A stretch of 64,000 bases of DNA, taken from a virus (taxonomy: Duplodnaviria; Caudoviricetes). The DNA lies in the IMG/VR virus record IMGVR_UViG_3300028601_000030, positions 1 through 64,000 of that record; one strand, written 5' to 3'. This document shows positions 7,320 through 26,106 of this stretch, piece by piece (within the stretch, counting starts at the first letter, position 1; each line of letters opens with the position of its first letter). Position numbers and translations under genes: made by a program. A model generated the notes under the pieces. That model saw nothing but the letters and a program-made list of their open reading frames with translations. It was not told where the DNA came from and did not search any database.

Positions 7320-7916
7320 ATGGGTTCTCAGTTCGTACAGCCAGAAATTCCAGAAATTGAAGAAAAGTACACTAAGGAGTATTTTCAAAAGCGTAGACGC
7401 AACATCCGACAAGAACTTGGAGTAATAGAAGCGAATCATGTTGTTAATGGAGGAACTACTGATTTAGTTTCAAACCTACTCACTCGGAAACATGCGGTTG
7501 AATTGTTGGAAGCAAAACACATGACTACCATTTCTAAGAAAGTCAATTTTGCTTCCGCTCATTTCTTGCCTGAACATCCTGGTAAATGTCGAAATCTCCA
7601 TGGACATGAATGGACAGTTGAAGTTGCTATTGAAGCTCCTGTAACAAAGTCTGGAATGGTTATGGATTTTGGTACATTGAAACAAATTCTAAATACTTAC
7701 GTGGTTGAAAAGCTTGACCATGCTTTTCTAAATATGCTGGTTGTTAATCCTACAGCAGAAAATTTGGCGATGTATATCTGGAACATTCTCCAATACGAAG
7801 CTGAATTGAAATTGATCACGTACATTCGCTTGTGGGAAAGTCCCAATTCAATGGTCGAATTGATAGAGAAGCAGATGCAGTATGCAACTCGGGGCATGTG
7901 GGATTGGGAGGTTTAA
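7320..7916 (+). CDS. queD: 6-carboxy-5,6,7,8-tetrahydropterin synthase with about 70-aa N-terminal extension
   Basis: FASAHFL...CRNLHGHEW, GMVMDFG, LDHAFLN, PTAENLA, WESP motifs. Confidence 0.95.
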   Translation: MGSQFVQPEIPEIEEKYTKEYFQKRRRNIRQELGVIEANHVVNGGTTDLVSNLLTRKHAVELLEAKHMTTISKKVNFASAHFLPEHPGKCRNLHGHEWTVEVAIEAPVTKSGMVMDFGTLKQILNTYVVEKLDHAFLNMLVVNPTAENLAMYIWNILQYEAELKLITYIRLWESPNSMVELIEKQMQYATRGMWDWEV

Positions 7917-8576
7917 ATGGAACCAGTTTATTCTGTAGTGGAATTTTTTGAATCTATTTCAGGAGAAGTAGGAACAACAATCCCGCAAGGTGAACGTACT
8001 TGGTTTCTGCGATTTGCTGGATGTTCTTTGCAGTGCAAATGGTGCGATTCTCAGCATTCTTGGAACTCTGCAAGCAAGAGGATAACTCTGATAGATTTGA
8101 TGGACGATATTGCATTTGCTGCTCCTACAAATCTGATTGTTACTGGTGGTGAACCTTTTGAACAACCACACATTTATAAATTTTTTGATACATTGTGCAA
8201 GACAGAAATCAAGAACATTGCTGTTGAAACGGGTGGTGTAGAAATTGATGATTTTTTCCTTTTGCATAAACGTGGAAGGATCAGTATAATCGCCGATTAC
8301 AAACCCAGAAGTGCTGGTATAGAAAAAGAACACAACACCCTTAATTATGACTATTTGCGGTCTGAAGATGTTGTAAAGTTTCCTGTTGCCACTGATGAAG
8401 ATTTAGATGAAGCTATCAAAACGTGGCAACATTTAGCATGGAATGAACACGGACCAAAATTTGCATTTACACCAATATTCCCTATGACAGCCGAAAAATT
8501 GTTTGAGCGTCTACGCTGTTTCCCCGATTCTTTTAGAATAAACGGGCAGTTACATAAATATTTCGGACTTGCTTGA
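7917..8576 (+). CDS. queE: 7-carboxy-7-deazaguanine synthase (radical SAM)
   Basis: FESISGE, FLRFAGCSLQCKWCDS, VTGGEP, VETGG, QLHKY motifs. Confidence 0.92.
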   Translation: MEPVYSVVEFFESISGEVGTTIPQGERTWFLRFAGCSLQCKWCDSQHSWNSASKRITLIDLMDDIAFAAPTNLIVTGGEPFEQPHIYKFFDTLCKTEIKNIAVETGGVEIDDFFLLHKRGRISIIADYKPRSAGIEKEHNTLNYDYLRSEDVVKFPVATDEDLDEAIKTWQHLAWNEHGPKFAFTPIFPMTAEKLFERLRCFPDSFRINGQLHKYFGLA

Positions 8577-8584
8577 TTTTTTTC

Positions 8585-8613
8585 TTGACGTACACAGCGT
8601 ATATGTATAGATT
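8585..8613 (+). promoter_or_regulatory. Sigma70-like promoter
   Basis: TTGACG-17nt-TAGATT in the gap after queE. Confidence 0.6.
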
Positions 8614-8648
8614 ATGTGCATGATGTTAAAACAAAAAGAGAGGTTGTC

Positions 8649-8810
8649 ATGGAGAAGAATTTTGAAATACCTACCCTTGAGTGTAAACGATGCGGGCACG
8701 AATGGGTACCTAGGGTAAAAGTAATCCGCACCTGTCCAAAATGCCGTTCCCCTTATTGGGACACACCAGCGCAATCCACAAAGAAGGAGAAAGAAAATGA
8801 CCTACAATGA
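8649..8810 (+). CDS. Small zinc-ribbon protein
   Basis: CKRCGHEWVPR...CPKCRSPYW; GAGG RBS. Confidence 0.75.
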   Translation: MEKNFEIPTLECKRCGHEWVPRVKVIRTCPKCRSPYWDTPAQSTKKEKENDLQ

Positions 8811-9294
8811 TCTGAAAACTGCGGTCAAGGAACTGAACGATCTGACGCTTGAAGGGCTAGATAAGCTCAAAACTGTCGGACTTCGCAAAGAAGTTCTTCT
8901 GGAGAGTTTTCTCCGTTCAGTTGAGAAAGTAGATGATCTCGGTAAAACTGAGGAGCTTCCCGCTTCCATCATCGAAGCGTACAACTGGTTCTCCAAGAAC
9001 GAAATGGAAGAATCCCCCAGTGCGAAAAAGGGAGCTGGACAAGCAAAGAAAAAGTCCATCAAGAAGTCTCGGTATGGTCACGTTCAGAGTGCCGTGTCTG
9101 GTAAGTTGGATGATATGTTGTTTGAAGGTGCAACCATTGCTGATGTGATGCAGGCGCTGGAACTGAAGCGTACTCGCGTCATTGGTCATATCAAGCATCT
9201 GAAAAATGACAAAGGTCTTACCTTCATTGAAGAAAAGCCCGCAGATGGTAAGCTGAATGACACCTTCTACCGTTGCAAAGAAGAATCTGCATAA
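8797..9294 (+). CDS. Putative DNA-binding protein (C-terminal wHTH-like)
   Basis: AAGGAG RBS; C-terminal GATIADVMQALELKRTRVIGHIKHL. Confidence 0.6.
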   Translation: MTYNDLKTAVKELNDLTLEGLDKLKTVGLRKEVLLESFLRSVEKVDDLGKTEELPASIIEAYNWFSKNEMEESPSAKKGAGQAKKKSIKKSRYGHVQSAVSGKLDDMLFEGATIADVMQALELKRTRVIGHIKHLKNDKGLTFIEEKPADGKLNDTFYRCKEESA

Positions 9295-9319
9295 TATGTA
9301 GTTGGTACATACTTTTATT

Positions 9320-9360
9320 GAAGGGAACGGAATTAGCTTTTCGTTCCCTTCTTTCTTTTT
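9320..9360 (+). terminator. Intrinsic terminator
   Basis: GAAGGGAACG...CGTTCCCTTC stem followed by TTTCTTTTT. Confidence 0.8.
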
Positions 9361-9373
9361 AAGGGTGAAATTC

Positions 9374-10933
9374 ATGGACACAAATAAGATTGAAAAGGGC
9401 ATTGAGTTAGTTTTGTCTGGACTTGTTGGTAACGATTGGAGAGCAGATGAAAACTTTTCTGAAACCCCAGCGCGTGTAGCAAAAGCGTACAAAGAAATGC
9501 TTTATGGTCATGATCTTCGTAGAACAGACATGGCTAAATTTTTCGAAAAGAAATTCCCTGCTGCCGGTTACAGTCAGATGATTTTCTGCACAGGAATCAA
9601 AGTTTATTCCATGTGTCCGCATCATCTATTACCTGTGACGTACAATGTATCTGTAGGGTATATTCCGAATGAGAAAGAGGGATATGTTATCGGTGCTTCG
9701 AAGCTTCCTCGACTTGTTGAAGCACTTGCAGCACAAGCAATCATTCAGGAAGAACTTACTTCTGAGATTGCCAAAGAGATTCAATTTCATCTCAACCCTA
9801 CAGGTATTGCACTTGTTGTTTCGGGGCAGCATTTGTGTTATGACGATCAGACAGACATTCTTACGGATAATGGTTGGAAAAAGTTTTCTGAATTAGGACG
9901 ATGGGATAAAGTGGCCCAATATAATCAAGAGTTAGAGAGCATTACTTTTGTATATCCCACAGAGTATATTTCCTACCCTTATCAAGGGGATATGATTTCA
10001 ATGAAAAGCAAAAACTATGATCTTTTAGTAACTCCAGATCATAGAGTTCTTTGCTCTTCAGAATGGAAATATAAAAATTCAAACGGTAAATTTGTAGATA
10101 TTGTTACTGCCGAACAATTATTAGATCAGCGTAAAACTTATTTGCCAAAGACTGCAAAAAATGGCAAAACAGATGGAGTTCGCATAAATTCTATTTATGG
10201 TGTTAACGGGGATGATTTTTGTGAATTTATGGGTTGGTATTTAGCTGATGGTTGTTGTAGTTATCGAAATAATAGAAAAACTGTTTGTATTACAAAATCT
10301 CGAACTAAGAATAATGGACAGGATCGAAAAGATTTATTATCCTTGTTGGATAAACTGGGATGTGATTATAGAGAATCAGAGGCAGACAATAATATTACAA
10401 TTACTGGAGAATTTTTACAATGTGTATTTCCATTATTATTTGAATGCGGAAAATCAAGAGATAAATTTGTGCCTAGAGTGATAAAATCAAGCACACAGGA
10501 ACAAATAAATCTTTTTTTAGACGCATATATCCGTTGTGATGGTCATATATATGAAAATGGGAAAGTGCATTTTTGTACAATATCCAAACAACTGCTTTCT
10601 GATTTGCAAGAGATGCTTTTATATGTTGGTAAAAGTGGAAGTATTCAATCTAATAACATGCGAATGGAAACAAATAAAGGGTATGCGTGTTTAGACTCAC
10701 AACATATTACAAAAACTTATTATGACGGGTATGTTTATTGTGTTTCCGTCCCAGATTCCTTATTAGTTGTTCGTAGAAATGGAAAAGTATCTATTTCTGG
10801 CAATTGTATGCAGGCTCGCGGCATCAAACAGCGTGGCAGTTCGTTTGAAACTTCAGAAATGCGCGGAGCATTTAGGGAGAATGAAAGCACCCGTAATGAA
10901 TTTTTTGAACTACTGAAAAACTCACAGAGGTAA
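9374..10933 (+). CDS. folE: GTP cyclohydrolase I interrupted by an intein (about 196 aa spliced)
   Basis: ETPARVAKAY, SMCPHHLLP, GASKLPRLV, IIQEELT motifs; HL|CMQARG restored when residues encoded by 9836-10804 are removed. Confidence 0.95.
   Translation: MDTNKIEKGIELVLSGLVGNDWRADENFSETPARVAKAYKEMLYGHDLRRTDMAKFFEKKFPAAGYSQMIFCTGIKVYSMCPHHLLPVTYNVSVGYIPNEKEGYVIGASKLPRLVEALAAQAIIQEELTSEIAKEIQFHLNPTGIALVVSGQHLCYDDQTDILTDNGWKKFSELGRWDKVAQYNQELESITFVYPTEYISYPYQGDMISMKSKNYDLLVTPDHRVLCSSEWKYKNSNGKFVDIVTAEQLLDQRKTYLPKTAKNGKTDGVRINSIYGVNGDDFCEFMGWYLADGCCSYRNNRKTVCITKSRTKNNGQDRKDLLSLLDKLGCDYRESEADNNITITGEFLQCVFPLLFECGKSRDKFVPRVIKSSTQEQINLFLDAYIRCDGHIYENGKVHFCTISKQLLSDLQEMLLYVGKSGSIQSNNMRMETNKGYACLDSQHITKTYYDGYVYCVSVPDSLLVVRRNGKVSISGNCMQARGIKQRGSSFETSEMRGAFRENESTRNEFFELLKNSQR
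9836..10804 (+). mobile_element. Intein with LAGLIDADG-type endonuclease in FolE (323 aa)
   Basis: Starts CYDDQTDILTDNGWK; block B LLVTPDHRV; FMGWYLADG and FLDAYIRCDG; ends YVYCVSVP...VRRNGKVSISGN followed by Cys. Confidence 0.93.
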
Positions 10934-11928
10934 TGATGGAAATTGTCAAAGCGGAAATACTCTTTAGTCGCCAGTGCCCACTTGATTGTTCATACTGTGG
11001 TATGAAAAATGAAAAGCAAAATAACCGCTCAATCAATGAATGGTTCATTGGTTTGGAAAATCTCAAATCTTTGGGGTGTCAATTTGCCGCTTTCTATGGG
11101 GCGGAGATATTGATGGAGTTTGACAAACTGAAGAAAGTTGTTGGTTATTCGGAATCAATCGGAATTGCTACAACTATCATAACTTCTGGGGCTGTTCCAG
11201 ATTTTAAGAAAAAACTACGTGAGTTATACGACAACGGTGCAAGAAGTCTGACCATGTCCAATGATTTGTGTACAACAGATCCTTCAAGCAGACGAAAAAC
11301 GGAACAAACATTATCCAACTTGCAGTTTTTCAACGAATATCCAGAATGTCGGGACGTTGCTTCTATCACAACTTTGACCAGACAGAACTTTCATCACCTT
11401 CCTGAAGCAATCAAAAAGCACACGGAAATGGGCATATGGACGTTCTTTGATTTCATTCACCCTGATAGAGGACTTCCAGGAACAAAGTGTCGGGGCAATG
11501 CAGAAGGTTTTGTTTTCGAGGACGAAGATTTCCCGAAGCTTGCAGAAGTTATGGATGAAGTCTGCGAAATGAAAGAACAAGATTATTTGGTTCATGTGTC
11601 CAAAGAATACATTAACCTTATGAAGCAAAATGATTTCAGCCTTCTGAAAAATTATAATTGGAACTGCGCTAAGTTGGATGTATTTCCGTCCTGGGTAACT
11701 ATTGACTGTGATGGTTCTGTACATTACTGCGATGATTTCCAAGAACAACGAAAACAACCTAAGTTTGACATGACTACACTGTTTAAAGACTGGGATAAAT
11801 TCTGCAGGCATGGTAAAAAGCTAGTTGGTACACGTTGCAGAGGATGTGCATGGTCTACTCATATTGACGCCCACTATATTAAGATGGGTATCAATGATAT
11901 AGATTCTTATGTACATGGGAGAACATAA
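10933..11928 (+). CDS. Radical SAM protein with SPASM/twitch-like C-terminus, function unknown
   Basis: CPLDCSYC motif, FYGAE, ITSG; C-terminal C...IDCDGSVHYCDD...CRGC. Confidence 0.85.
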   Translation: MMEIVKAEILFSRQCPLDCSYCGMKNEKQNNRSINEWFIGLENLKSLGCQFAAFYGAEILMEFDKLKKVVGYSESIGIATTIITSGAVPDFKKKLRELYDNGARSLTMSNDLCTTDPSSRRKTEQTLSNLQFFNEYPECRDVASITTLTRQNFHHLPEAIKKHTEMGIWTFFDFIHPDRGLPGTKCRGNAEGFVFEDEDFPKLAEVMDEVCEMKEQDYLVHVSKEYINLMKQNDFSLLKNYNWNCAKLDVFPSWVTIDCDGSVHYCDDFQEQRKQPKFDMTTLFKDWDKFCRHGKKLVGTRCRGCAWSTHIDAHYIKMGINDIDSYVHGRT

Positions 11929-11994
11929 TGGATTTCTACAAAATACTTACTGAATTTTCACCTGTAGGAAGCACTTCTTGGAGAGGGATATAAA

Positions 11995-12978
11995 ATGATA
12001 CTTTGTCTTTCAGGCGGACTAGATTCCGTAATTGCGTATTATTATATGGGGAAACCCAAAACTATCTTTTTTGATTATGGTGACTATACCAAAGTTGAAA
12101 AAGAACGAGTCCTTGCAATTGCTCCTGACACAATCATTGACAAGTCTTTGAATCTGGCGGGAAAGTCTCAAGGAAAAACAGCGTATATTCCCAATCGCAA
12201 TCTGATGTTTGCAGCACTTGCATGTAGGTATGCCAATACCATTGTTATGGCAGGAATAAAAGATGATGATGTTCCCGATAAAAATCGAATAGCCTTTACG
12301 GAAATGGGAGAACTCCTGTCTAATATTAGTGGCGGTACAACCATAAAAGTAGAATCTCCTTTTTGGGAAATGACAAAATCAGACTTAGTTGCGTGGGCAA
12401 TTGATAATCTGTCTACAGATGAATTGGAAACTGTTTTAGAGGTTTCTATATCCTGCTACACACCCACACCAGACGGTAAAGAGTGTCGAAGTTGCCCCTC
12501 TTGTTTCAGAAAATGGAATGCTTTAGATGCCAACGGTATTCATACCAAGTTCAAAAACAAAGCTTTGATGGAAGAATATCTGCAAAAAGCAAAGGATGGT
12601 GTTTATATTCCAGAAAGAAATTCATCTATTATCCGCAGTGTTACTGGTTATTTTAGCAAGGACCTGAGACAAAAGCCTAAAGTGTATTGCTTTGACATTG
12701 ACGGTGTTCTGACTGTAGAGACTGAGGGATATGGAGAAGAAGTTTACCGGAATCGCACACCAAACATCGTAATGATTGAAAAGGTGCGAAAACTACACTT
12801 GATGGAGAATAAAATCATTCTCCATACAGCAAGGCATAAAGAGGATATATCTGTCACTTGTGATTGGCTTGCAAAGCACAGTGTTCCGTTTGATGCGCTT
12901 CAATTTGAAAAGCCGAAAGCTGATTATTACATTGACGACCGAATGATAAGAATGGAAGAGGTTCTTACCCATGTCTAA
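11995..12978 (+). CDS. queC: 7-cyano-7-deazaguanine synthase fused to a HAD-family phosphatase domain
   Basis: SGGLDS, YIPNRNLMF, SCY...CRSCPSC; C-terminal FDIDGVLT, HTAR, KPKADYYIDDR. Confidence 0.9.
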   Translation: MILCLSGGLDSVIAYYYMGKPKTIFFDYGDYTKVEKERVLAIAPDTIIDKSLNLAGKSQGKTAYIPNRNLMFAALACRYANTIVMAGIKDDDVPDKNRIAFTEMGELLSNISGGTTIKVESPFWEMTKSDLVAWAIDNLSTDELETVLEVSISCYTPTPDGKECRSCPSCFRKWNALDANGIHTKFKNKALMEEYLQKAKDGVYIPERNSSIIRSVTGYFSKDLRQKPKVYCFDIDGVLTVETEGYGEEVYRNRTPNIVMIEKVRKLHLMENKIILHTARHKEDISVTCDWLAKHSVPFDALQFEKPKADYYIDDRMIRMEEVLTHV

Positions 12979-13843
12979 AATTTCCTTTTTCCTAGATTGT
13001 GGTGCCTATAGCGCCGATTCTCAAGGCAAGCCCGTTGATCTTGAGGAATACATTGCCTATATAAAACAACACGAACACTTACTGGATATTTACCCAGTCC
13101 TTGATGTTATTGGCAATGCCGAAGAAACTTGGAAAAATCAGCAAATCATGGAAGATGCTGGACTTAAACCATTACCTGTGTTTCACGTAGAAGATAATAT
13201 GAACCATCTTTTTCAGTGTTTGGAATATGAGTATTTTTGTTTAGGTGGTATGGCAGGAGGTGCTGGAGGAAAAACAAGGCAAGCCTTTTTGAACAAATGT
13301 TTTGACATCATCTGTGACACACCTGACAGAAAACCGAAATCAAAAGTTCATGGTTTTGGATTAGCTTCACCATCATTGATGGTGCAGTATCCTTTCTACA
13401 GTGTAGATACTTCTAGTTGGGTTGCGTACTCACAGTATGGAATAATACTTGTTCCTAAGCACGACAACGCAGGCAATCCATTATACGGAGCAACACCGAC
13501 AAAGATCTTTGTCACCGAGCGTTCACCAAAAATGGAGATTGAGGGACAACACTTCAAAAACCTGACCAGTAAAGAAAAAGACTTTGTGCTGAAATACATT
13601 GAAGATTTAGGATTCCAGATGGGCAAATCATCTACGTTCGAAGTCTCAGAAGACTACACCTTGCAAGAGTCAGAGACTTTCATGAATAAAGAAAAAACTC
13701 GCGTTGAGCGTGCGGAGATTTGCGGAATCAGCAATAATAATTCAATGCGCTACGTTTACAACATGCGTTACTTTCAAGCAATTGCAGATTCTTGTTCCGA
13801 GTGGCCGTGGTCTTGGAGTCCTAAGATTCGTAGTTTTTTCTAG
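12971..13843 (+). CDS. dpdA: TGT-like DNA deazaguanine transglycosylase (DpdA-like)
   Basis: FLDCGAYS, VLDVIG, LGGMAG, KVHGFG, SVDTSSW TIM-barrel motifs; adjacent to queC/folE. Confidence 0.8.
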   Translation: MSKISFFLDCGAYSADSQGKPVDLEEYIAYIKQHEHLLDIYPVLDVIGNAEETWKNQQIMEDAGLKPLPVFHVEDNMNHLFQCLEYEYFCLGGMAGGAGGKTRQAFLNKCFDIICDTPDRKPKSKVHGFGLASPSLMVQYPFYSVDTSSWVAYSQYGIILVPKHDNAGNPLYGATPTKIFVTERSPKMEIEGQHFKNLTSKEKDFVLKYIEDLGFQMGKSSTFEVSEDYTLQESETFMNKEKTRVERAEICGISNNNSMRYVYNMRYFQAIADSCSEWPWSWSPKIRSFF

Positions 13844-14792: not shown

Positions 14793-15804
14793 AACAGAAG
14801 AATTGAAATCAGTAATCAAGGTTCTATTACCGGCAACCAGTAAAAAGGACTTGGTGTTGCAAATGGCGCACCTTGTATTCCAAGAAAATGAAATACTCGC
14901 CTATAACGACCGCATTGCGATTGCTCATCCTTTTGAATCTGGTATTACTGCATCGGTACCTGCTGGGTCTTTGAATAAGATTCTTGATGGTATCGAAGAC
15001 AAAGAAATTGAATTGTCGGCAGATGATAATAATCTGACCATCACAAGCAAATCGACTGAAGCTGTTATCCAGATTGAAACCGAGTCTCGTGTAGTTGAGG
15101 AATATTTCTCTGAAGTTGACTTTGATGATATGGTTTGGGAGGCTGTACCAAAGGACTTTCTTGATAATCTGGCACTTGCTCGTTTGAGCACTTCAAGCAA
15201 CGTATTCGACCCGAACAATCTGTATTGCGTCTATGTAAACAAAGAATGCTTGGATTCAAGTGATGGTTACAGGGTGTCTCGTATTTTTATGGAGTCTGAT
15301 TTTGAAGATAGTTTCCTTTTACCCTCATCTTCAATTCAAGACCTCTTGACATTTAAAAGCTTTGAGTCCTACTCCCTCGAAGACAGCTGGATTCATTTCA
15401 CCACTGACAACAAGGTGACTGTATCTTGTCGCACAGGAGCCGGTGACTTTCCCGACTTCACAGAAATCATTGATGGGTTTGAAAAAGAATCCGAAATCAA
15501 GATTGATGCGAAGCTTATCCCGGCACTTGAAAACTTGAGTGGTTTGGTTGAAGGCGAATCTGATTTTATGAAGTCGGTAAATATCGAACTCAAAGCAAAG
15601 AAGGCAATCATCACTGGACGTAAAGAAGGTGTGAGTGTCAAGAAATCGTATGATGTTGAAAATTCCGGTACAGCTACTTTCGACATTAGCCCTGTGTTTC
15701 TGGCATACATTCTAAAACTGACAAACAACATGGCAATTGGAGAACACAGTGCCTTGTTTGAAGACAACGACAAGTTTATCCACCTCGTACAACTTCCGGT
15801 ATAA
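14782..15804 (+). CDS. DNA sliding clamp (DnaN/beta-clamp-like)
   Basis: About 340 aa acidic beta-rich protein; ILAYNDRIAI, LDSSDGYRV motifs; directly upstream of the polymerase. Confidence 0.75.
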   Translation: MKVKTEELKSVIKVLLPATSKKDLVLQMAHLVFQENEILAYNDRIAIAHPFESGITASVPAGSLNKILDGIEDKEIELSADDNNLTITSKSTEAVIQIETESRVVEEYFSEVDFDDMVWEAVPKDFLDNLALARLSTSSNVFDPNNLYCVYVNKECLDSSDGYRVSRIFMESDFEDSFLLPSSSIQDLLTFKSFESYSLEDSWIHFTTDNKVTVSCRTGAGDFPDFTEIIDGFEKESEIKIDAKLIPALENLSGLVEGESDFMKSVNIELKAKKAIITGRKEGVSVKKSYDVENSGTATFDISPVFLAYILKLTNNMAIGEHSALFEDNDKFIHLVQLPV

Positions 15805-15806
15805 TT

Positions 15807-18800
15807 ATGGCTAAGATTCACAATTTCTTTTCCAAGAGTAAAGATGCTGTTCCTATGGAATGCGCTAAATGCGGCATGTTCAACGGCTGTAAAAACGGAC
15901 GTATGAAACCAGCTGGTCTAGGAGAAAAGAAAATATTGGTTATCACTGACTCCCCTGACGCTCAAGCTGATTTGAAAGGAACAATTGCTGAAAGTTCCCA
16001 ATACAAATTCCTGCATACAGAATTGCGTAAGTTGGGACTTAACCTCTATAAGGACTGCTGGACTGTTCCGGCAGTCCGTTGTTATTCAGAACGTACACCA
16101 CAAAAAGCACAAGCGATGCACTGTAAACCAGAGCTTGAAGAAGATTTCAAGTCACTTCAACCGAAACATGTATTTACATTTGGCAATATTTCATTGGGCA
16201 CAATCACAGATAAGTATTATTCTGGTATTATCAGTGAGAATTGTATGGGAGATTCAATTCCCATTAAAGAATTTGGATTTTATCTTCATCCGTTTTTAGA
16301 TGTCCCTCAAATTCAAGCAACAAAGAAAAACAAGAATTACCAATCTTATGTCAAACGGCAATTACACAAGGCGATTGAGTTTGCAAAGTCTGGAAGAGGA
16401 TTTATAAACTACACATACGATGATCCTAAAAATGTAGAATTCCTGCTTGATGCTAAATCAGTTCTGGACAAACTTGGCGAATTGATGGATGAAAAAGAGA
16501 TTGCCCTTGACTACGAAACAACAGGCATAAAGCCCCATCGTGACGGACACAAGATAACTGTTGTTGGATTGTCTACTGATGATAGCGCATACGCTTTCCC
16601 ACTTGACTATCAAGAGTATTGGAACGTTGATGATTGGAATGATATTAACGATGCTTTGGCAGACCTCATAGAAGCAAAGAAACCAAAGATGATTGTGCAT
16701 AACAAAGTGTTCGAAAATCTTTGGTCTCGTTTTATATTGGAAGTTGATTCATTCATGGACGAATGTACCATGATTCGTCAACATGTGTTAGATCATCGGC
16801 GCAAAACAAAATCCCTGAAGTACCAGATATTCCGACGTTGGGGAATTTGGGGATACGATGCTTCGATGGATAGGTATATTAAAGCTCCAGATTCCAACTC
16901 AATGAACAAAATGGACGAAGCTCCGTTAGACGATCAATTGTTGTATGTTGGACTTGATGCGTACATGACGATGAAACTTCATCGCGAACAGGAGAAAGAG
17001 TTTGCTGGGAAGAAAAATCTGCAACAGGCAAATAAGTTTTTCCAAGAATCGTCAAATTCTATGACAGTTCTGCAAGAATCTGGTTTAAATGTAGATGAAA
17101 AATATTACCAAGAAATAGAAAAAGAATTAACTCGTACAATCACTGGGTTAGAAAAATCAATCTCAGCAAACGAAGAAGCCCAACGCTTTCGTAAACTGTA
17201 TAAGAAAAAGTTTGACCACAATTCACCGATGAATCTCAAGAGGTTGTTGTTTGATCAAATGGGATTAGAGTCGGTGAAAGACACAGCCAAAGGTGGGCAA
17301 GCTGTTGATGCTGAAGTTTTGAAAGAACTGGACATTCCTATTGGTAATTATATCCTTGATTTACGTAAGTATCTCAAACTCAGGGACACGTACCTTTCAC
17401 AGTTTAAACGTGAAGTTGTTGATGGACATATTCATCCATTCTTTTATCTGACAACAGTTACCAGTTATAGGTCCTGTATAGCTGGATATGAAAAAGTAAT
17501 GGTTGTTCGTGATTTTGAATCTGAACCTGAAGGAATACCAATAAAAGATGTTAAAGTTGGTGATTTAGTTTATTGCTTTGATGATAAATTAAACCCTCAG
17601 ATAAAAAAGGTTTTGTGGCAAGGTAAGACTGGTCATAGAGAAATTATACGAGTGCATTATTACCGCAAGGGTAAACGTTATTATTTTGATTGTACTCCTG
17701 AACACAAGGTACGATTGATTGATGGGTCGTATATAGAAGCTCAAAATTTAAAACCAAATGATCATGTACTAGCTTGCAGTAGAACTGGAGATTATATAAA
17801 TTTTACTGGTCACTTAAAACATGGGCATGGGTTTAAAGAGCATCGCTTTATCTATGAACAATTGGTAGGTGATTTAAATTCTGATGAAGTAATACACCAT
17901 AAAAATTGGAATCACTTTGATCATCGTCCAGAAAACTTACAAAAAACAACCAGATCGGAACACAGTAAAATTCACGCATCTGTTTTGTCAAATCTTCCGG
18001 AACGTAAAGAACTAGCTCGGCAGTCGATGTTAAAACGTTGGGAAAACAATGAATTTTCTCCCAGATTTGGGGAAGACAACAATTCGTATGTTTTTATCAT
18101 CCGTTTTGCTTGCCTGCGAAAACTTGCTGAAAATCACGGCAAACTCAAACTGGCTGCTGAATCTATTCCTATGGATTTTGCTACATTTAAAAATAAAATT
18201 TCTGACTACGGTTTAGATTGGAAAACGATAAAACTCAGATATGACAAAAACGGGAAATATATTTCTAAAGCAAGATTGCAGAACTTGTCTCATTTAGGAA
18301 GGAGTAAAGTACAACGAATTTTAGGACACAATTATTATAAGTTATTAGAATTGTATAAATTCTACGGATTAGATTTAAAACGAAAATGGTCAAATCAATT
18401 TGGAGAATTTGTTCCAGGCAATCACAGAATAACCGGTATAGAGCATTTGCATACAAGTGTTGATGTGTATGATATTGAGGTAGAAGATCATCACAATTTC
18501 TTTGTAAATGAGATTTGTGTGCATAATTCAAGTGCAGACCCAAATTTCCAGAACATACCCAAGCGGGACAAAGAAGCAAAGAACTCTATTCGTTCTGGAA
18601 TCGTGCCTTCAAAAGGCAACAAGCTTTGTGAGATTGACTTCTCTGGTATGGAAGTTTCTACTTCAGCTACGTATCACTGTGACCCGAATTTTATCAATTA
18701 CCTACTTGATGATTCAGCCGACATGCACAGGGATAATGGCTGTGACATTTGGATGCTTGAACAAGATGAAATGACTCCAGAGATTCGTTTCTTTGTCAAG

Positions 18801-19397
18801 AATGGTTGGACATTTCCTCAGTTTTATGGTGATTGGTATGATTCATGTGGTCGTGCATTGTGGAAAAGCTCATTGCATTTGAACACGGCTGCTGGTATCA
18901 CACTTGAAGAACATTTGAAAGGCAAGGGAATCTATAGCCAAAATGAGTTTTTGGAACATTGCAAGTCTGCTGAAAACATTATGTGGCATGAACGCTTCAA
19001 GGTTTACACTGAGTGGAAAGAATCCATCAATGATTTTTATCTGAAAAATGGATATGTTGAAACACACATGGGATTTCGTTTCACAGGTATGATGGACAGA
19101 AAGCAAACTGCAAACTTTCCTATTCAAGGTACAGCGTTTCATCTTCTCCTGTTCTGCATAAACTTGATGATTAAAGAGAAGCAGAAACGTAAGTGGAAAT
19201 CACGTTTCATTGGACAAGTGCATGATAGTTGCATCATCGACCTTGTCCCAGAAGAACAAGATGAAATATTTGAGGTGTTCGATTATCATGTCCAGCACAC
19301 CATCCCCGAAACATTTAAATGGGCGAATGTTCCGTTTCGCATAGACAAAGAAGTGTCTCCTATCGACGGAACATTTGCACAATTGGAGGAATTATAA
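15807..19397 (+). CDS. polA: Family A DNA polymerase with N-terminal UDG-like domain, 3'-5' exonuclease and an intein (about 845 aa spliced)
   Basis: ExoI LDYETTG, ExoII HNKVFE, ExoIII YVGLDA; RS|SSADPNFQNIP; motif A EIDFSGME, motif B RFFVKNGWTFPQFYG, motif C QVHDS. Confidence 0.95.
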   Translation: MAKIHNFFSKSKDAVPMECAKCGMFNGCKNGRMKPAGLGEKKILVITDSPDAQADLKGTIAESSQYKFLHTELRKLGLNLYKDCWTVPAVRCYSERTPQKAQAMHCKPELEEDFKSLQPKHVFTFGNISLGTITDKYYSGIISENCMGDSIPIKEFGFYLHPFLDVPQIQATKKNKNYQSYVKRQLHKAIEFAKSGRGFINYTYDDPKNVEFLLDAKSVLDKLGELMDEKEIALDYETTGIKPHRDGHKITVVGLSTDDSAYAFPLDYQEYWNVDDWNDINDALADLIEAKKPKMIVHNKVFENLWSRFILEVDSFMDECTMIRQHVLDHRRKTKSLKYQIFRRWGIWGYDASMDRYIKAPDSNSMNKMDEAPLDDQLLYVGLDAYMTMKLHREQEKEFAGKKNLQQANKFFQESSNSMTVLQESGLNVDEKYYQEIEKELTRTITGLEKSISANEEAQRFRKLYKKKFDHNSPMNLKRLLFDQMGLESVKDTAKGGQAVDAEVLKELDIPIGNYILDLRKYLKLRDTYLSQFKREVVDGHIHPFFYLTTVTSYRSCIAGYEKVMVVRDFESEPEGIPIKDVKVGDLVYCFDDKLNPQIKKVLWQGKTGHREIIRVHYYRKGKRYYFDCTPEHKVRLIDGSYIEAQNLKPNDHVLACSRTGDYINFTGHLKHGHGFKEHRFIYEQLVGDLNSDEVIHHKNWNHFDHRPENLQKTTRSEHSKIHASVLSNLPERKELARQSMLKRWENNEFSPRFGEDNNSYVFIIRFACLRKLAENHGKLKLAAESIPMDFATFKNKISDYGLDWKTIKLRYDKNGKYISKARLQNLSHLGRSKVQRILGHNYYKLLELYKFYGLDLKRKWSNQFGEFVPGNHRITGIEHLHTSVDVYDIEVEDHHNFFVNEICVHNSSADPNFQNIPKRDKEAKNSIRSGIVPSKGNKLCEIDFSGMEVSTSATYHCDPNFINYLLDDSADMHRDNGCDIWMLEQDEMTPEIRFFVKNGWTFPQFYGDWYDSCGRALWKSSLHLNTAAGITLEEHLKGKGIYSQNEFLEHCKSAENIMWHERFKVYTEWKESINDFYLKNGYVETHMGFRFTGMMDRKQTANFPIQGTAFHLLLFCINLMIKEKQKRKWKSRFIGQVHDSCIIDLVPEEQDEIFEVFDYHVQHTIPETFKWANVPFRIDKEVSPIDGTFAQLEEL
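17475..18527 (+). mobile_element. Intein with HNH endonuclease in PolA (351 aa)
   Basis: Starts CIAGYEKV; CTPEHKV; HNH motif VIHHKNWNHFDHRPENLQKTTRSEHSKIH; ends VYDIEVEDHHNFFVNEICVHN followed by Ser. Confidence 0.95.
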
Positions 19398-23624: not shown

Positions 23625-23727
23625 TATATCAGCACACATTTTACAAATAAAAATCAAATACACCGCGCGAGAATAGCGGGAATCGTTATTTCTTGTAGCC
23701 CACTTGCTCGATAGAAAGGTTTGCTCT

Positions 23728-26106
23728 ATGTTGAATCGTAGATCAAAAGGCGAAAATGATGCAGCAGTGGAAAACATTCAGAAAACTGAAAAGAAAATTC
23801 CTAAAGTTGCAGATAATTATGTATCGGTCGATAAAGACACTCTGCTTGTATCCACAGGCTCTACTCTACTTGATCTTGCTATTTCTGGTGGACGTGTTCG
23901 GGGTGGGGGAATCCCTGGTGGAATCATGTGCGAAATCTTTGGACAAAGTTCCGCCGGAAAATGTATTACAGGCAATACGCAAATATTAACGGATAAAGGG
24001 CAATATGCCATCGAAGACTTCTCTTCTGGGGAAGAGGGGTTTGTCGAACATCGGATGAAAATAGTTTCCGATTCTGGTATTGAAGATACTTCTCATTTCT
24101 ATGAAGAGGAATCTTCTGAAGTTATCCAAATAACAAATACTCTTGGTATGGATATAACTGGAACTCCAGAACATCCTATACTTTGTTATTGTGCTGGTGG
24201 TATATCTTTTAAAAAATTATCGGATATCCATATCGGTGATTTGACTTGTATCCCCAGAGAATTAGGAATTTTCCCAAAAGATAATTTCTATATTGCTTTT
24301 AAAGATCCAACAAGACAAACATCTGCAACGAGGACATTGGTGAATATTCCGGAAAAACTTACCCCAGAACTTTCTAGGCTACTTGGATACCTAGTAGCTA
24401 ACGGTTGTGGAAAGGATAATCTTATTGGGTTTTCATCGAAAAATAAGAAAATTCGAAAAGATGTAATATCCATTTGTTCTTCATTAGGAGTAGAATGCGG
24501 AAAACTAGAAAAGGGCAAAGATTTTGGTATTAAAGGAAGAGTTTTTCGAAATTTTATTGACTACTTGAATGGAGAACCTTTCCAAAAATCCAGAACAAAG
24601 AAAATACCAGTATCTGTTTTACAATCGAATAGAGAATGTCAACGCCAATTCCTTCTTGGTTTATTCGACTGTGATTCTTGGTATGATTATAACTGCACGT
24701 TTGAATATTATACGGCAAGTAAAATGTTAGCCGTACAAGTACAAACGATGCTCCAAAATTTTGGTATTTTATCTGTGCATGGTGAGAAATATTTGGAAGA
24801 ATATGAGCATACTTACCATTCTATTAAAATACCAGCGTGGGGGGTAGAAAAATTCTATGAGCTGTTCCCAGATTCCATTAAATATGAATGGCATAAAAGG
24901 GAATTTCAAAAGGATTTTAATCGACTACCAATTAATAATGAGCTTCGTAATTTAGTAGATTCTATAAGAAAGGAGTTGGGGGTAAAAAATAACGGTGCCT
25001 TTCTTTATAAAGGACTTAGTGGTCGTTTTCAATTATTAAAAGGTGTTCCAGATCAGTTTTCCAAACAATCGGATAATTACAATGCAAGACATCTTCCAAT
25101 CATTTTAAAAAATGCAAAAAAATTACCACAAGTAGATTCCGTAAAAAGTTTAATAAATTTTGTTACTCAACTTATTCCTTATTTCTTATCACCTGTAACA
25201 AAGGTTAAAGTAAAAAAAGAACCAACAATGGTTTACGATTTTACGATACCAGAAACACATAAATTCTTTAGTAATGGGTATATTTCTCATAACACAGCAA
25301 TCCTTACAGAAATAGCTGCATCTATTCAAGATAGAAAAGGTGATGTTTTCTTTGTTGATCCTGAAGCCCGCATAGATAAAGAGTACAGCAAGATTTACGG
25401 GTTTGAAATGAACAAAAATAATTATGCCCGTTGTGACACTGTTACCGAGACATTCGACCTTCTTGAAAAATGGGCACCTGAGAATCCAAACAAAATCAAT
25501 TTGTTTGCGGCGGATTCAATAGCAGCTCTTTCTACTGATATGGAGATGGGAGAAGGTGACAAGCGTGGACAAAGAAAAGCAAAAGAATTGTCCGAAGGTT
25601 GCCGGAAGACTGCTCGGCTTATTGCTCACAATAATAAGCTTGTCATTTTTACCAACCAAGAACGTGACGGAGAATATGGTAAAACAACCCCCGGCGGTCA
25701 TGCCATCCCGTATCACTGTTCGCTCAGGATGCGAGTCTCACGGAAGGGCAGAATCGAAAAGAAAAAGACGATTGCTTCAGGAAAGGCTGTCACTAAGACA
25801 ATCGGCATTGAGTCGGAGGTGCTGATTAGAAAATCTACCGTTGATGATGAATACAGAACAGCCCCTATTTTCATAATCTTTGGTGTAGGTATTGATGATG
25901 TCCGTGCAAATCTTCAGTACGTAAAAGACATGGAGAAGCTTACCAAATATTGGTGTGTTGACACTGAATATGTTTCCATGGACAAAGCTATCACGTACAT
26001 TGAAGACAACGATCTGGAAGAAGAATTACGTGAACGTGTGATTGATATTTGGGAAGAAGTTGAAGCCAAATTTACTATGGAACGCAAAAAGAAAAAGAGG
26101 TTTTGA
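23728..26106 (+). CDS. recA: RecA/UvsX-like recombinase with an intein (about 348 aa spliced)
   Basis: STGSTLLDLAI, GGIPGG, EIFGQSSAGK|T, FVDPEAR, DSIAAL, FTNQ, TTPGGHAIPYHCS. Confidence 0.93.
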   Translation: MLNRRSKGENDAAVENIQKTEKKIPKVADNYVSVDKDTLLVSTGSTLLDLAISGGRVRGGGIPGGIMCEIFGQSSAGKCITGNTQILTDKGQYAIEDFSSGEEGFVEHRMKIVSDSGIEDTSHFYEEESSEVIQITNTLGMDITGTPEHPILCYCAGGISFKKLSDIHIGDLTCIPRELGIFPKDNFYIAFKDPTRQTSATRTLVNIPEKLTPELSRLLGYLVANGCGKDNLIGFSSKNKKIRKDVISICSSLGVECGKLEKGKDFGIKGRVFRNFIDYLNGEPFQKSRTKKIPVSVLQSNRECQRQFLLGLFDCDSWYDYNCTFEYYTASKMLAVQVQTMLQNFGILSVHGEKYLEEYEHTYHSIKIPAWGVEKFYELFPDSIKYEWHKREFQKDFNRLPINNELRNLVDSIRKELGVKNNGAFLYKGLSGRFQLLKGVPDQFSKQSDNYNARHLPIILKNAKKLPQVDSVKSLINFVTQLIPYFLSPVTKVKVKKEPTMVYDFTIPETHKFFSNGYISHNTAILTEIAASIQDRKGDVFFVDPEARIDKEYSKIYGFEMNKNNYARCDTVTETFDLLEKWAPENPNKINLFAADSIAALSTDMEMGEGDKRGQRKAKELSEGCRKTARLIAHNNKLVIFTNQERDGEYGKTTPGGHAIPYHCSLRMRVSRKGRIEKKKTIASGKAVTKTIGIESEVLIRKSTVDDEYRTAPIFIIFGVGIDDVRANLQYVKDMEKLTKYWCVDTEYVSMDKAITYIEDNDLEEELRERVIDIWEEVEAKFTMERKKKKRF
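23962..25293 (+). mobile_element. Intein with LAGLIDADG endonuclease inserted in the RecA P-loop (444 aa)
   Basis: Starts CITGNTQI; ITGTPEHPI; LLGYLVANG and FLLGLFDCDS; ends VYDFTIPETHKFFSNGYISHN followed by Thr. Confidence 0.95.

Follow-up and report, generated by a model that had tools for sequence, protein, structure and literature searches.

The locus described here encodes a second radical SAM enzyme inside a phage gene cluster for 7-deazaguanine DNA modification, and it raises the question of which reaction this enzyme catalyzes. The window, that is, the whole stretch of DNA analyzed, comprises 64,000 nucleotides (positions 1 to 64,000 of IMG/VR record IMGVR_UViG_3300028601_000030, Caudoviricetes); the full record is 79.6 kb long and approximately 67% complete. 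Phage DNA is known to carry eight 7-deazaguanine derivatives, each of which, when found, added novel enzymology and novel resistance to restriction and CRISPR. The literature searched on phage deazaguanine clusters describes no second radical SAM enzyme. The features concerned are as follows.

7320..7916, + strand: QueD (CPH4 synthase; PF01242, E 6e-33)
7917..8576, + strand: QueE (CDG synthase; TIGR03963, E 1e-30; phrog_2076)
8797..9294, + strand: conserved protein (165 aa) without assigned function, between QueE and FolE
9302..10933, + strand: GTP cyclohydrolase I (FolE) with a LAGLIDADG intein (PF01227, E 4e-46; PF14528, E 6e-11; Intein_splicing)
10933..11928, + strand: radical SAM enzyme with a Twitch-like C-terminal domain (ORF, PF04055, phrog_1802)
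10975..10998, + strand: CxxxCxYC, predicted ligands of the SAM-binding [4Fe-4S] cluster (C15, C19, C22)
11095..11109, + strand: YGAEI, family form of the GGEP SAM-binding motif (from the family alignment)
11659..11853, + strand: Twitch-like or partial SPASM domain (W243-x-C245, G261-x4-C266, C302-x2-C305)
11995..12978, + strand: divergent QueC paralog fused to a capless HAD phosphatase (PF06508, E 4e-21; TIGR01689, E 4.5e-8; phrog_1550, phrog_1238)
12971..13843, + strand: DpdA-type DNA guanine transglycosylase (phrog_887, E 9e-42)

FolE, QueD, QueE, a QueC-type protein and DpdA are all encoded on one strand within positions 7320-13843, and the locus is a DpdA-type 7-deazaguanine cluster. The DpdA protein is nearest to DpdA1 of 9g/PaMx25-like phages and is, by tblastn, 35-40% identical to DpdA genes annotated in phages. 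In the fusion protein, the QueC part spans approximately residues 1-210 (PP-loop, SGGLDS; Zn site, C-x9-C-x2-C-x2-C) and the HAD part approximately residues 226-327; against the PDB, QueC was matched with an E of only 1e-3, and 1xpj with an E of 1e-7. The 165-aa protein recurred in most window-type loci (phmmer) and had neither a PHROG match nor a Pfam match above cut-off. QueF, ArcS and PRTase were absent from the 79.6-kb record, itself approximately 67% complete, and no Gat-QueC was detected among the record ORFs scanned. Only two PF04055 matches were found in the record, QueE being the sole other radical SAM enzyme. As the earlier note had pointed out, QueE is already encoded at 7917: four QueE families matched that ORF and were its best NCBIfam matches (E 1e-30), and none was among the matches of the radical SAM protein, for which an identity as QueE was rejected.

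The ORF at 10933..11928 (+) encodes 331 aa, or 330 aa from the second in-frame ATG at 10936. The FolE stop codon TAA (10931-10933) and the ATG at 10933 form TAATG with a 1-base overlap, and the ATG at 10936 lies 5 nt 3' of an AGAGG(T) Shine-Dalgarno-like site. The start at 10936, 2 nt past the FolE stop, is favored and is probably the true one, because the protein-database copy has 330 aa and the ESM Atlas record begins at residue 2. Whichever ATG is used, folE and the radical SAM gene are tightly coupled, with the QueC-like-HAD fusion downstream, so that the coupling proposed in the earlier note holds. The ORF scored 38 bits against Pfam PF04055 (cut-off, 29.5; E 2.4e-9) and matched phrog_1802 (E 3e-10). 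The PF04055 score, the number of homologous clusters and the AlphaFold2 confidence described below establish it as a real gene and not a chance ORF. The cluster motif reads CPLDCSYC in the window copy, and its three cysteines were invariant in 41 of 41 family members and also in distant relatives; likewise invariant were Y55, G56, A57 and E58 (YGAE, residues 55-58) within a family consensus of YGAEP. These two motifs, the Cys-rich C-terminus and the TAATG overlap, all of which had been noted earlier, were thus present in the ORF.

At residue 59, where more than 90% of the family members have Pro, the window copy has Ile. In BlsE all four GGEP residues, Pro among them, are essential (PMC3715490), and given this requirement the Ile counts against the reading favored below.

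Membership in the radical SAM superfamily was indicated by a core profile above the gathering score, the cluster motif and a partial TIM-barrel fold matching many radical SAM structures. Homologs formed 191 clusters at 90% identity, with at least 118 representatives at 50% identity; all came from viral or metagenomic contigs, none from cultured phages. Searching 50,697 phage records with the radical SAM protein by tblastn gave no match at E <= 1e-3, and a search of 185,579 species genomes gave only 4 matches, all on MAG contigs of 3-65 kb. The family is virus-only, and within so large a family the enzyme is not the orphan that it had been called. Because no cultured phage carries the gene, the family cannot be linked with any known modification. 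The matches from both ESM Atlas searches comprised only unnamed or generic radical SAM clusters. Two long homologs (P0176 and P0216) considered as fusions proved to be intein insertions. A fusion of the radical SAM enzyme with QueC, suggested by a 571-aa 'QueC' as the best structural match in BFVD, was also rejected for want of fusion evidence; the 571-aa QueC cluster P0288, perhaps not the same protein as the BFVD match, joins a ComB-like phosphatase to QueC and shows no similarity to the radical SAM enzyme, and no longer forms of the enzyme were found in the search range of 679-2000 aa. The gene product is predicted to be a working radical SAM enzyme of an uncharacterized, virus-restricted family.

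Known families were tested with NCBIfam profiles, of which 15 matched the radical SAM protein at E <= 0.1, all far below cut-off. The anaerobic RNR activase NrdG (TIGR02495, E 0.014, 14.8 bits against a cut-off of 131), viperin (NF038283, 19.7 bits against 180) and MoaA (TIGR02668, 12.7 bits against 325) were rejected, viperin and MoaA being similar in general fold alone (Z, 17.6-18.1), and the PqqE profile gave only a far sub-threshold match. The enzyme therefore maps neither to NrdG, the unrelated family put forward in the earlier note, nor to another named family. TIGR01210, which we take to be the RaSEA family, was not among the 15 matches and had no match in the 79.6-kb record; among six controls, it matched M. 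jannaschii, H. volcanii and M. acetivorans. ArcS (PF17884) had no match at E <= 0.1 in the record (approximately 67% complete). RaSEA identity was therefore rejected, and the parallel with RaSEA that had been drawn does not extend to homology.

The C-terminus had been assigned to SPASM. By definition, a SPASM domain (PF13186/TIGR04085) has the seven-Cys pattern CX9-15GX4C ... CX2CX5CX3C ... C and two auxiliary clusters, and a Twitch domain is a shorter version of it with a single auxiliary [4Fe-4S] cluster. Only C-x15-G-x4-C and CxxC were present here (C245-x15-G261-x4-C266, then C302-x2-C305), and Pfam SPASM (PF13186) gave no match at E <= 0.1, so that the assignment was narrowed to Twitch-like. 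C245, C259, C266, C302 and C305 were conserved in the family, and C245, C266, C302 and C305 were invariant in relatives down to 21% identity. In the AlphaFold2 model (pLDDT, 92.9; pTM, 0.91), the four invariant cysteines are placed in a hairpin-plus-helix arrangement (beta-hairpin, 254-264; helix, 287-301), and one auxiliary [4Fe-4S] cluster is probably bound by C245, C266, C302 and C305 as predicted from this model.

The structure closest to the model was BlsE (PDB 7vob; Z, 25.3; rmsd, 3.4 A; TM, 0.67; 301 of 327 residues aligned, 16% identity). Z values were 17-20 for SuiB, SkfB, PqqE, anSME and MoaA (SkfB, 20.1; MoaA, 17.6), only 11.9 for BtrN, only 9-10.4 for SPL, MiaB and TYW1, and only 9.8 for B. 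subtilis QueE. Among solved structures, the top sequence matches were the peptide-modifying SPASM/Twitch enzymes SuiB, SkfB, PqqE and CteB. BtrN, MoaA, SkfB, SuiB, PqqE and anSME resemble the window enzyme in that, behind the radical SAM core, they have a domain of beta-hairpin and helix that bears cysteines as C-x15-G-x4-C and then CxxC; unlike SPASM maturases, the window enzyme lacks the CX2CX5CX3C block, and it also lacks the RRE found in peptide maturases. The protein is compact, forms a single domain, opens directly with the radical SAM core and has no nucleic-acid-binding extension; the median pI across the family is 6.2. BlsE is the radical SAM cytosylglucuronate decarboxylase of blasticidin S biosynthesis. 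It shares with the window enzyme a length of approximately 330 aa and the lack of an N-terminal peptide-recognition domain, and its own substrate is small and nucleobase-bearing; it differs in having GGEP in place of YGAEP, and cytosylglucuronate genes are absent around the radical SAM gene. Given the low identity, an HMM match confined to the N-terminal core (E 1.5e-5) and the que/dpdA context, membership in the BlsE/MilG/ArgF decarboxylase family was rejected.

Linkage to deazaguanine genes was counted in 37 distinct loci seeded with the radical SAM enzyme and flanked on either side by 3 kb or more. In all 37 the QueC paralog was present (<=3 kb away in 36), FolE in 36, QueD in 33, and QueE, DpdA and HAD in 32 each, and the homologs thus do sit with que and dpdA genes, the association on which the earlier note had made its proposal depend. 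The linkage held at 30% identity, across differing gene orders and in records of approximately 67 to 183 kb, and que clusters also contained still remoter members of the family (E 1e-27 to 1e-38). In jumbo-phage members, DpdA was not detected by phrog_887, PF01702 or a DpdA profile, and one 617-aa ORF aligned weakly. Gat-QueC accompanies some of the members, which leaves room for more than one end product. Such linkage points to a shared function only indirectly.

The radical SAM enzyme is a dispensable add-on to the cluster. Among 63 distinct loci with the QueC paralog, a close radical SAM homolog was found in 39, a distant one in 14 and none in 10 (approximately 16%); loci without it were scattered over the QueC-like tree, and one of them (L107) is sister to a locus that has it (L044). 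A differential search for co-varying genes returned only a clamp and a DNA polymerase tracking the enzyme, which were taken as markers of phage lineage. In L107, a class I methyltransferase occupies the exact slot between FolE and the QueC-like gene. Elsewhere, a methyltransferase precedes Gat-QueC (L124), and a GT2 glycosyltransferase (L135) or merely a sub-threshold GT2 match (L141) is located upstream of the QueC-like gene, directly so in L135. Because the enzyme is dispensable and a methyltransferase or glycosyltransferase fills the same slot in loci lacking it, the tailoring reading is strengthened.

On the grounds of linkage, dispensability and the shared slot, the proposal of a candidate 7-deazaguanine tailoring enzyme stands. 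In the reading that we favor, to which we assign about an even chance, the radical SAM protein, encoded by a single dispensable gene, carries out a tailoring step of the phage 7-deazaguanine pathway, and the product is a derivative not yet described. We infer that it acts on this pathway, that its substrate is a small molecule and not DNA, and that its product is a new base. CDG would be made by FolE, QueD and QueE, a nitrile or amide base would be formed from it by the divergent QueC paralog with its phosphatase, and DpdA would put the base into DNA; the radical SAM enzyme would alter the 7-deazaguanine by 5'-deoxyadenosyl-radical chemistry or, alternatively, a reduced pterin precursor offering an sp3 C-H, with the auxiliary cluster serving as an electron conduit or substrate anchor. 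To our knowledge, free preQ0, CDG and ADG have no sp3 C-H, which counts against this reading, since ordinary H-abstraction would then depend on a co-substrate, on radical addition, on a pterin precursor or on a sugar. One such product might be preQ0 modified at C8 or on its side chain by radical addition or oxidation. Tailoring beyond the known steps is supported because, of the next-step enzymes, QueF and ArcS were not found in the record and Gat-QueC not among its scanned ORFs, and a small-molecule substrate because the fold is nearest to BlsE, the pI is acidic and a nucleic-acid-binding extension is absent.

The closest described systems bear on this reading. The DpdA1 systems of 9g (dG+, with Gat-QueC) and of CAjan and Rosebush (dPreQ0) share FolE, QueD, QueE, a QueC-type protein and DpdA with the window (PMC6884629) but lack a second radical SAM enzyme, and the window QueC, unlike theirs, belongs to a separate divergent paralog clade that is usually accompanied by a HAD phosphatase. 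DpdM, DpdN and DpdL are accessory enzymes by which phage deazaguanine clusters vary the base they insert (PMC10516641); their folds (DUF3109, formyltransferase and QueD paralog, respectively) are unrelated to that of the window enzyme, and DpdM and DpdN require preQ1 and hence QueF, which is absent from the record of the window.

Modification after DpdA, in which the enzyme would alter dPreQ0 or another inserted 7-deazaguanine in the DNA, is unlikely. The gene shares an operon with dpdA in 32 of the 37 loci, and its slot is filled elsewhere by a Zn-ribbon methyltransferase or a TAGT-like glycosyltransferase. Such methyltransferases and glycosyltransferases act on DNA in other phage systems, and that slot enzymes such as glycosyltransferases usually do so argues for a DNA-level substrate; DpdM, too, has been proposed to act on DNA (PMC10516641). 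Against this, the family is acidic (a weak argument), the compact single domain carries no added nucleic-acid-binding domain, the structural neighbors work on small molecules or peptides, with SPL, MiaB and TYW1 far lower in Z, and radical attack on the deoxyribose of DNA would presumably risk strand damage.

It is rather improbable that the enzyme processes a nitrogen donor in the manner of RaSEA, the QueC paralog coupling an amino acid or other amine, in place of ammonia, to CDG or preQ0, and the radical SAM enzyme then abstracting H beside that nitrogen and releasing the carbon skeleton, with a known end product (preQ0, ADG or G+). Twitch auxiliary clusters suit two-electron oxidation, as in BtrN and anSME, which counts for such processing, as does the fact that the enzyme never occurs without the QueC paralog. 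The adduct would provide the sp3 C-H missing from the free bases, and an optional enzyme fits loci able to use free ammonia. The precedent is RaSEA itself, a radical SAM enzyme of a 7-deazaguanine pathway after preQ0 that is paired with ArcS (PMC11298593); unlike the window enzyme, it acts on tRNA in Euryarchaea with its ArcS partner, and neither homology to it nor ArcS was detected by the searches above. The QueC-like sequences are not split by the presence of the radical SAM enzyme, so that a change of nucleophile is not visible, and Gat-QueC and DpdA of phage 9g make dG+ in E. coli without such an enzyme (PMC6884629), yet many family members adjoin Gat-QueC.

A role unrelated to the base, such as protein maturation in the pathway, supply or salvage, or anti-defense, with the gene co-traveling by shared regulation, is improbable. 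The sequence names no substrate, and the best sequence matches of known structure (SuiB, SkfB, PqqE and CteB) modify peptides; however, the N-terminal extension of SuiB, SkfB and CteB (approximately 90-130 residues, with the peptide-recognition RRE) and the full SPASM motif are absent, no small precursor gene co-varied with the enzyme, and linkage to the QueC paralog survived rearrangement across phage lineages. BlsE-like removal of a carboxylate, converting CDG to 7-deazaguanine (dDG in DNA), is very improbable: BlsE is the best structural match, CDG carries the sole carboxylate of the pathway and the dDG decarboxylase DpdL is merely predicted (PMC10516641), but identity to BlsE is low, BlsE acts on a sugar C-H and not an aromatic acid (PMC3715490), and the radical SAM enzyme always accompanies a CDG-consuming QueC-type enzyme, whereas the known dDG phage phiST has no QueC.

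If the tailoring reading is true, the enzyme would provide the first description of radical SAM tailoring in DNA purine modification. That a large clade of uncultured phages uses a Twitch-type radical SAM enzyme for a 7-deazaguanine DNA base outside the eight known is given slightly less than an even chance; their DNA would then carry a derivative beyond those described. If such a base is made, the chemistry of natural DNA would widen, the gene would be a marker with which to find such phages in metagenomes, and radical SAM chemistry would gain a new reaction whose scaffold is a deazapurine or pterin.

The open reading frame at 10933..11928 (+) was confirmed as real; the encoded radical SAM enzyme (rSAM) carries CPLDCSYC at residues 15-22, FYGAEI at residues 54-59 and a cysteine-rich C-terminus. 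The final base of the FolE stop codon TAA (10931-10933) is the first base of an ATG (10933). The protein-database copy (330 aa) and the ESM Atlas record begin instead at an alternative ATG (10936), located 5 nt downstream of an AGAGG(T) sequence. The FolE and rSAM genes are coupled whichever ATG serves as start. The neighbouring genes, in agreement with the earlier note, are placed as follows.

Genes adjoining the rSAM gene
7320-7916, QueD
7917-8576, QueE
9302-10933, FolE with a LAGLIDADG intein of ~320 aa (PF14528, Intein_splicing)
10933-11928 (+), rSAM
11995-12978, QueC-type enzyme fused to a HAD phosphatase
12971-13843, DpdA

Intein-free FolE homologues in three related loci (L001-L003) are 191-197 aa long. 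Between QueE and FolE, here and in many related clusters, lies a conserved protein of 165 aa (8797-9294) whose middle region is basic and to which no family was assigned. The UDG-PolA fusion (15807-19397) is 1196 aa long, its counterparts in related loci 837 to 908 aa or more; HNH-like sequence in the middle of the 1196-aa protein makes an inserted intein or homing endonuclease probable. An 800-aa UvsX-like ORF (23704-26106) has extra N-terminal sequence matching intein-bearing PHROGs.

A PF04055-type radical SAM core was detected in rSAM at 38 bits (Pfam threshold 29.5). All NCBIfam matches were far below threshold (PqqE N-terminus, HxsB, TIGR04053, PTO1314, viperin, NrdG2 and MoaA), and the sole PHROGs match was a generic 'radical SAM' family. 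The enzyme is not the orphan it was first taken for: a word-indexed protein search returned 191 homologous clusters, all from metagenomic contigs, at 43-69% identity and with a length of about 330 aa in nearly every case. When 1.84 billion representatives were searched exhaustively with an HMM, 118 matched at E <= 1e-30, a number that rose to 894 at E <= 1e-10. The family was found at 53 IMG/VR loci and just four times in 185,579 species genomes, in each case on MAG contigs of 3-65 kb that look like binned phage; no match was found in 50,697 phage genome records. Two homologous clusters (P0176 and P0216) are intein-split, the insertion of PT-HINT and Intein_splicing domains lying beyond about residue 300.

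Invariant positions in a 41-sequence alignment include C15, C19, C22, Y55-G-A-E58, C245, G261, C266 and C305, with P59, C259 and C302 nearly invariant; C245, C266, C302 and C305 are kept without exception in relatives down to 21% identity. The C-terminal pattern, C245-x15-G261-x4-C266 followed solely by C302-x2-C305, corresponds in sequence to the first half of the SPASM motif with a CxxC added, which predicts a Twitch-like domain suited to a single auxiliary cluster. The SPASM profile of Pfam gave no match, and the full SPASM architecture proposed earlier is not retained.

An AlphaFold2 model built with the family alignment (pLDDT 92.9, pTM 0.91) was compared against 48,161 PDB representatives.

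Structural comparison of the rSAM model
BlsE (7vob): Z 25.3, rmsd 3.4 Å, 301/327 residues, 16% identity
SuiB, SkfB and PqqE: Z about 20
anSME and viperin: Z 18.1
MoaA: Z 17.6
BtrN: Z 11.9
QueE: Z 9.8

Foldseek concurred on BlsE (TM 0.67), a radical SAM decarboxylase acting on a cytosine glycoside (PMC3715490). The rSAM chain opens directly with the radical SAM core and therefore, unlike RiPP maturases, has no N-terminal peptide-recognition domain. The family is acidic (median pI 6.2).

For linkage, the window's proteins served as queries against the ORFs of 60 loci, and 37 loci with at least 3 kb on each side of rSAM were left after removal of duplicates. A QueC-type gene was present in all 37 (within 3 kb in 36), FolE in 36, QueD in 33, and QueE, DpdA and HAD in 32 each. 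The linkage is kept at 30% identity, across several orders of the genes and in records that range from about 67 to 183 kb, and more distant members (E 1e-27 to 1e-38) likewise lie within que clusters; homologues thus do not mostly occur without que or dpdA genes, the outcome that the earlier note had set against its own reading. In one distant relative (L065:5979-11251), the cluster holds a PRTase-FolE fusion, rSAM, an SDR, a PfkB-family kinase, one canonical and one divergent QueC, and UDG-PolA; the PRTase-FolE fusion might return DpdA-released guanine to GTP.

The jumbo phage L046 (183-kb record, CheckV 100% complete; 15673-17523) encodes QueD, QueE, rSAM, Gat-QueC, the QueC paralogue and a methyltransferase; DpdA was not found in it by phrog_887, PF01702 or the DpdA profile, and a 617-aa ORF adjoining the methyltransferase, with a weak DpdA alignment (E 0.049) and a TGT-like DSGGFQ motif, may be a very divergent transglycosylase. 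At L001:12650-15699, a dNMP kinase, an adenylosuccinate-synthase-like gene (PurZ-like?) and ThyX adjoin the deazaguanine cluster, which hints that this phage alters more than one base.

The QueC adjoining rSAM matched solved QueC structures at E 1e-3 at best, and no close relative was found in cultured phages; the PP-loop, the R-N motif and the four-Cys zinc site are retained. It belongs to a distinct clade, since it occurs beside canonical or Gat-fused QueC in the same loci (rSAM-seeded L037, L039, L041, L046, L049, L059 and L065, and several QueC-seeded loci). Two minimal clusters without rSAM, one in the faecal phage L146 (DpdA, QueC-like, QueD, QueE and FolE) and one in L107 (QueD, QueE, FolE and QueC-like-HAD; no DpdA1-type match), have only this QueC; the paralogue alone is therefore probably a functional preQ0 (or ADG) synthase, and the HAD domain probably goes with it rather than with rSAM. 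Among phages, QueC has fused with phosphatases that fall into two unrelated folds (11995-12978; P0284, P0286, P0287 and P0288). In the window and many loci, a capless HAD domain forms the C-terminus; in clusters such as P0288 (571 aa; 21 members, with one 193-kb contig), a ComB-like 2-phosphosulfolactate phosphatase forms the N-terminus. Such convergent fusion points to a phosphatase step, perhaps the removal of pyrophosphate, as going with the QueC reaction.

Seeding with this paralogue gave 78 new loci, which were pooled with the earlier ones and de-duplicated, and 63 with enough flank were classified. A close rSAM was present in 39 and a distant one in 14 (mostly adjoining canonical or Gat-QueC, and with an SDR also present in 8 of the 14), and rSAM was absent from 10. 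Rows without rSAM are dispersed over the QueC-like tree (nine rows, nine changes; quick tree of 86 sequences), L107 being sister to the rSAM-bearing L044, and no gene family besides phage-lineage markers co-varies with rSAM. On these grounds, rSAM is a single-gene add-on, gained or lost repeatedly, that depends on the pathway, and the pathway does not depend on it.

Known routes were also considered. The parent 79.6-kb linear IMG/VR record (about 67% complete) contains two radical SAM genes only, and no QueF, ArcS or RaSEA-family gene, so that the suggested kinship to RaSEA falls away; none of the ORFs scanned was a Gat-QueC. DpdM (DUF3109), DpdL (a QueD paralogue) and DpdN (a formyltransferase) (PMC10516641) are absent from the proteins of the window's replication module. 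In E. coli, Gat-QueC and DpdA of phage 9g are enough to yield dG+ (PMC6884629), and a radical enzyme is therefore unnecessary on that route. In the literature searched, no phage deazaguanine cluster was described as encoding a second radical SAM enzyme.

Stripped of the orphan, SPASM and RaSEA labels, the earlier proposal of a candidate tailoring enzyme stands. The analysis establishes the class and fold of rSAM, the conservation of its cluster ligands, its gene linkage and its dispensability; from these we infer that rSAM tailors 7-deazaguanine or a precursor. PreQ0, CDG and ADG have no sp3 C-H, and several chemistries may be envisaged: rSAM might catalyse radical addition to pyrrole C8 or the nitrile, use a co-substrate, or act on a reduced pterin (CPH4 or H2NTP), on an amine adduct from the QueC paralogue (a RaSEA-like logic) or on DNA. 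That it yields an undescribed derivative, mainly at the small-molecule level, has in our estimate about an even chance. Action at the DNA level is unlikely. RaSEA-like processing of a nitrogen donor, for which the paralogue's adduct would be the substrate, is quite improbable, and a role unrelated to the base itself is very improbable. A CDG decarboxylase, recalling the activity of BlsE, is hardly to be expected.

Other genes occupy the corresponding position where rSAM is absent: a class I methyltransferase with a Zn ribbon between FolE and QueC-like (L107:7305-7982) and a SAM methyltransferase preceding Gat-QueC (L124:5459-6121). Just upstream of its QueC-like gene, L135 has a GT2/TAGT-like glycosyltransferase, with a glycerophosphotransferase nearby (L135:7169-7993 and L135:5213-6205), and the upstream gene at L141:7226-8011 has a weak, sub-threshold GT2 match; a methyltransferase is also present in some rSAM loci (L001 and L046). 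The arrangement looks like that of a biosynthetic cluster with one variable tailoring position, and the slot upstream of QueC-like or Gat-QueC may mark further, undescribed deazaguanine derivatives.
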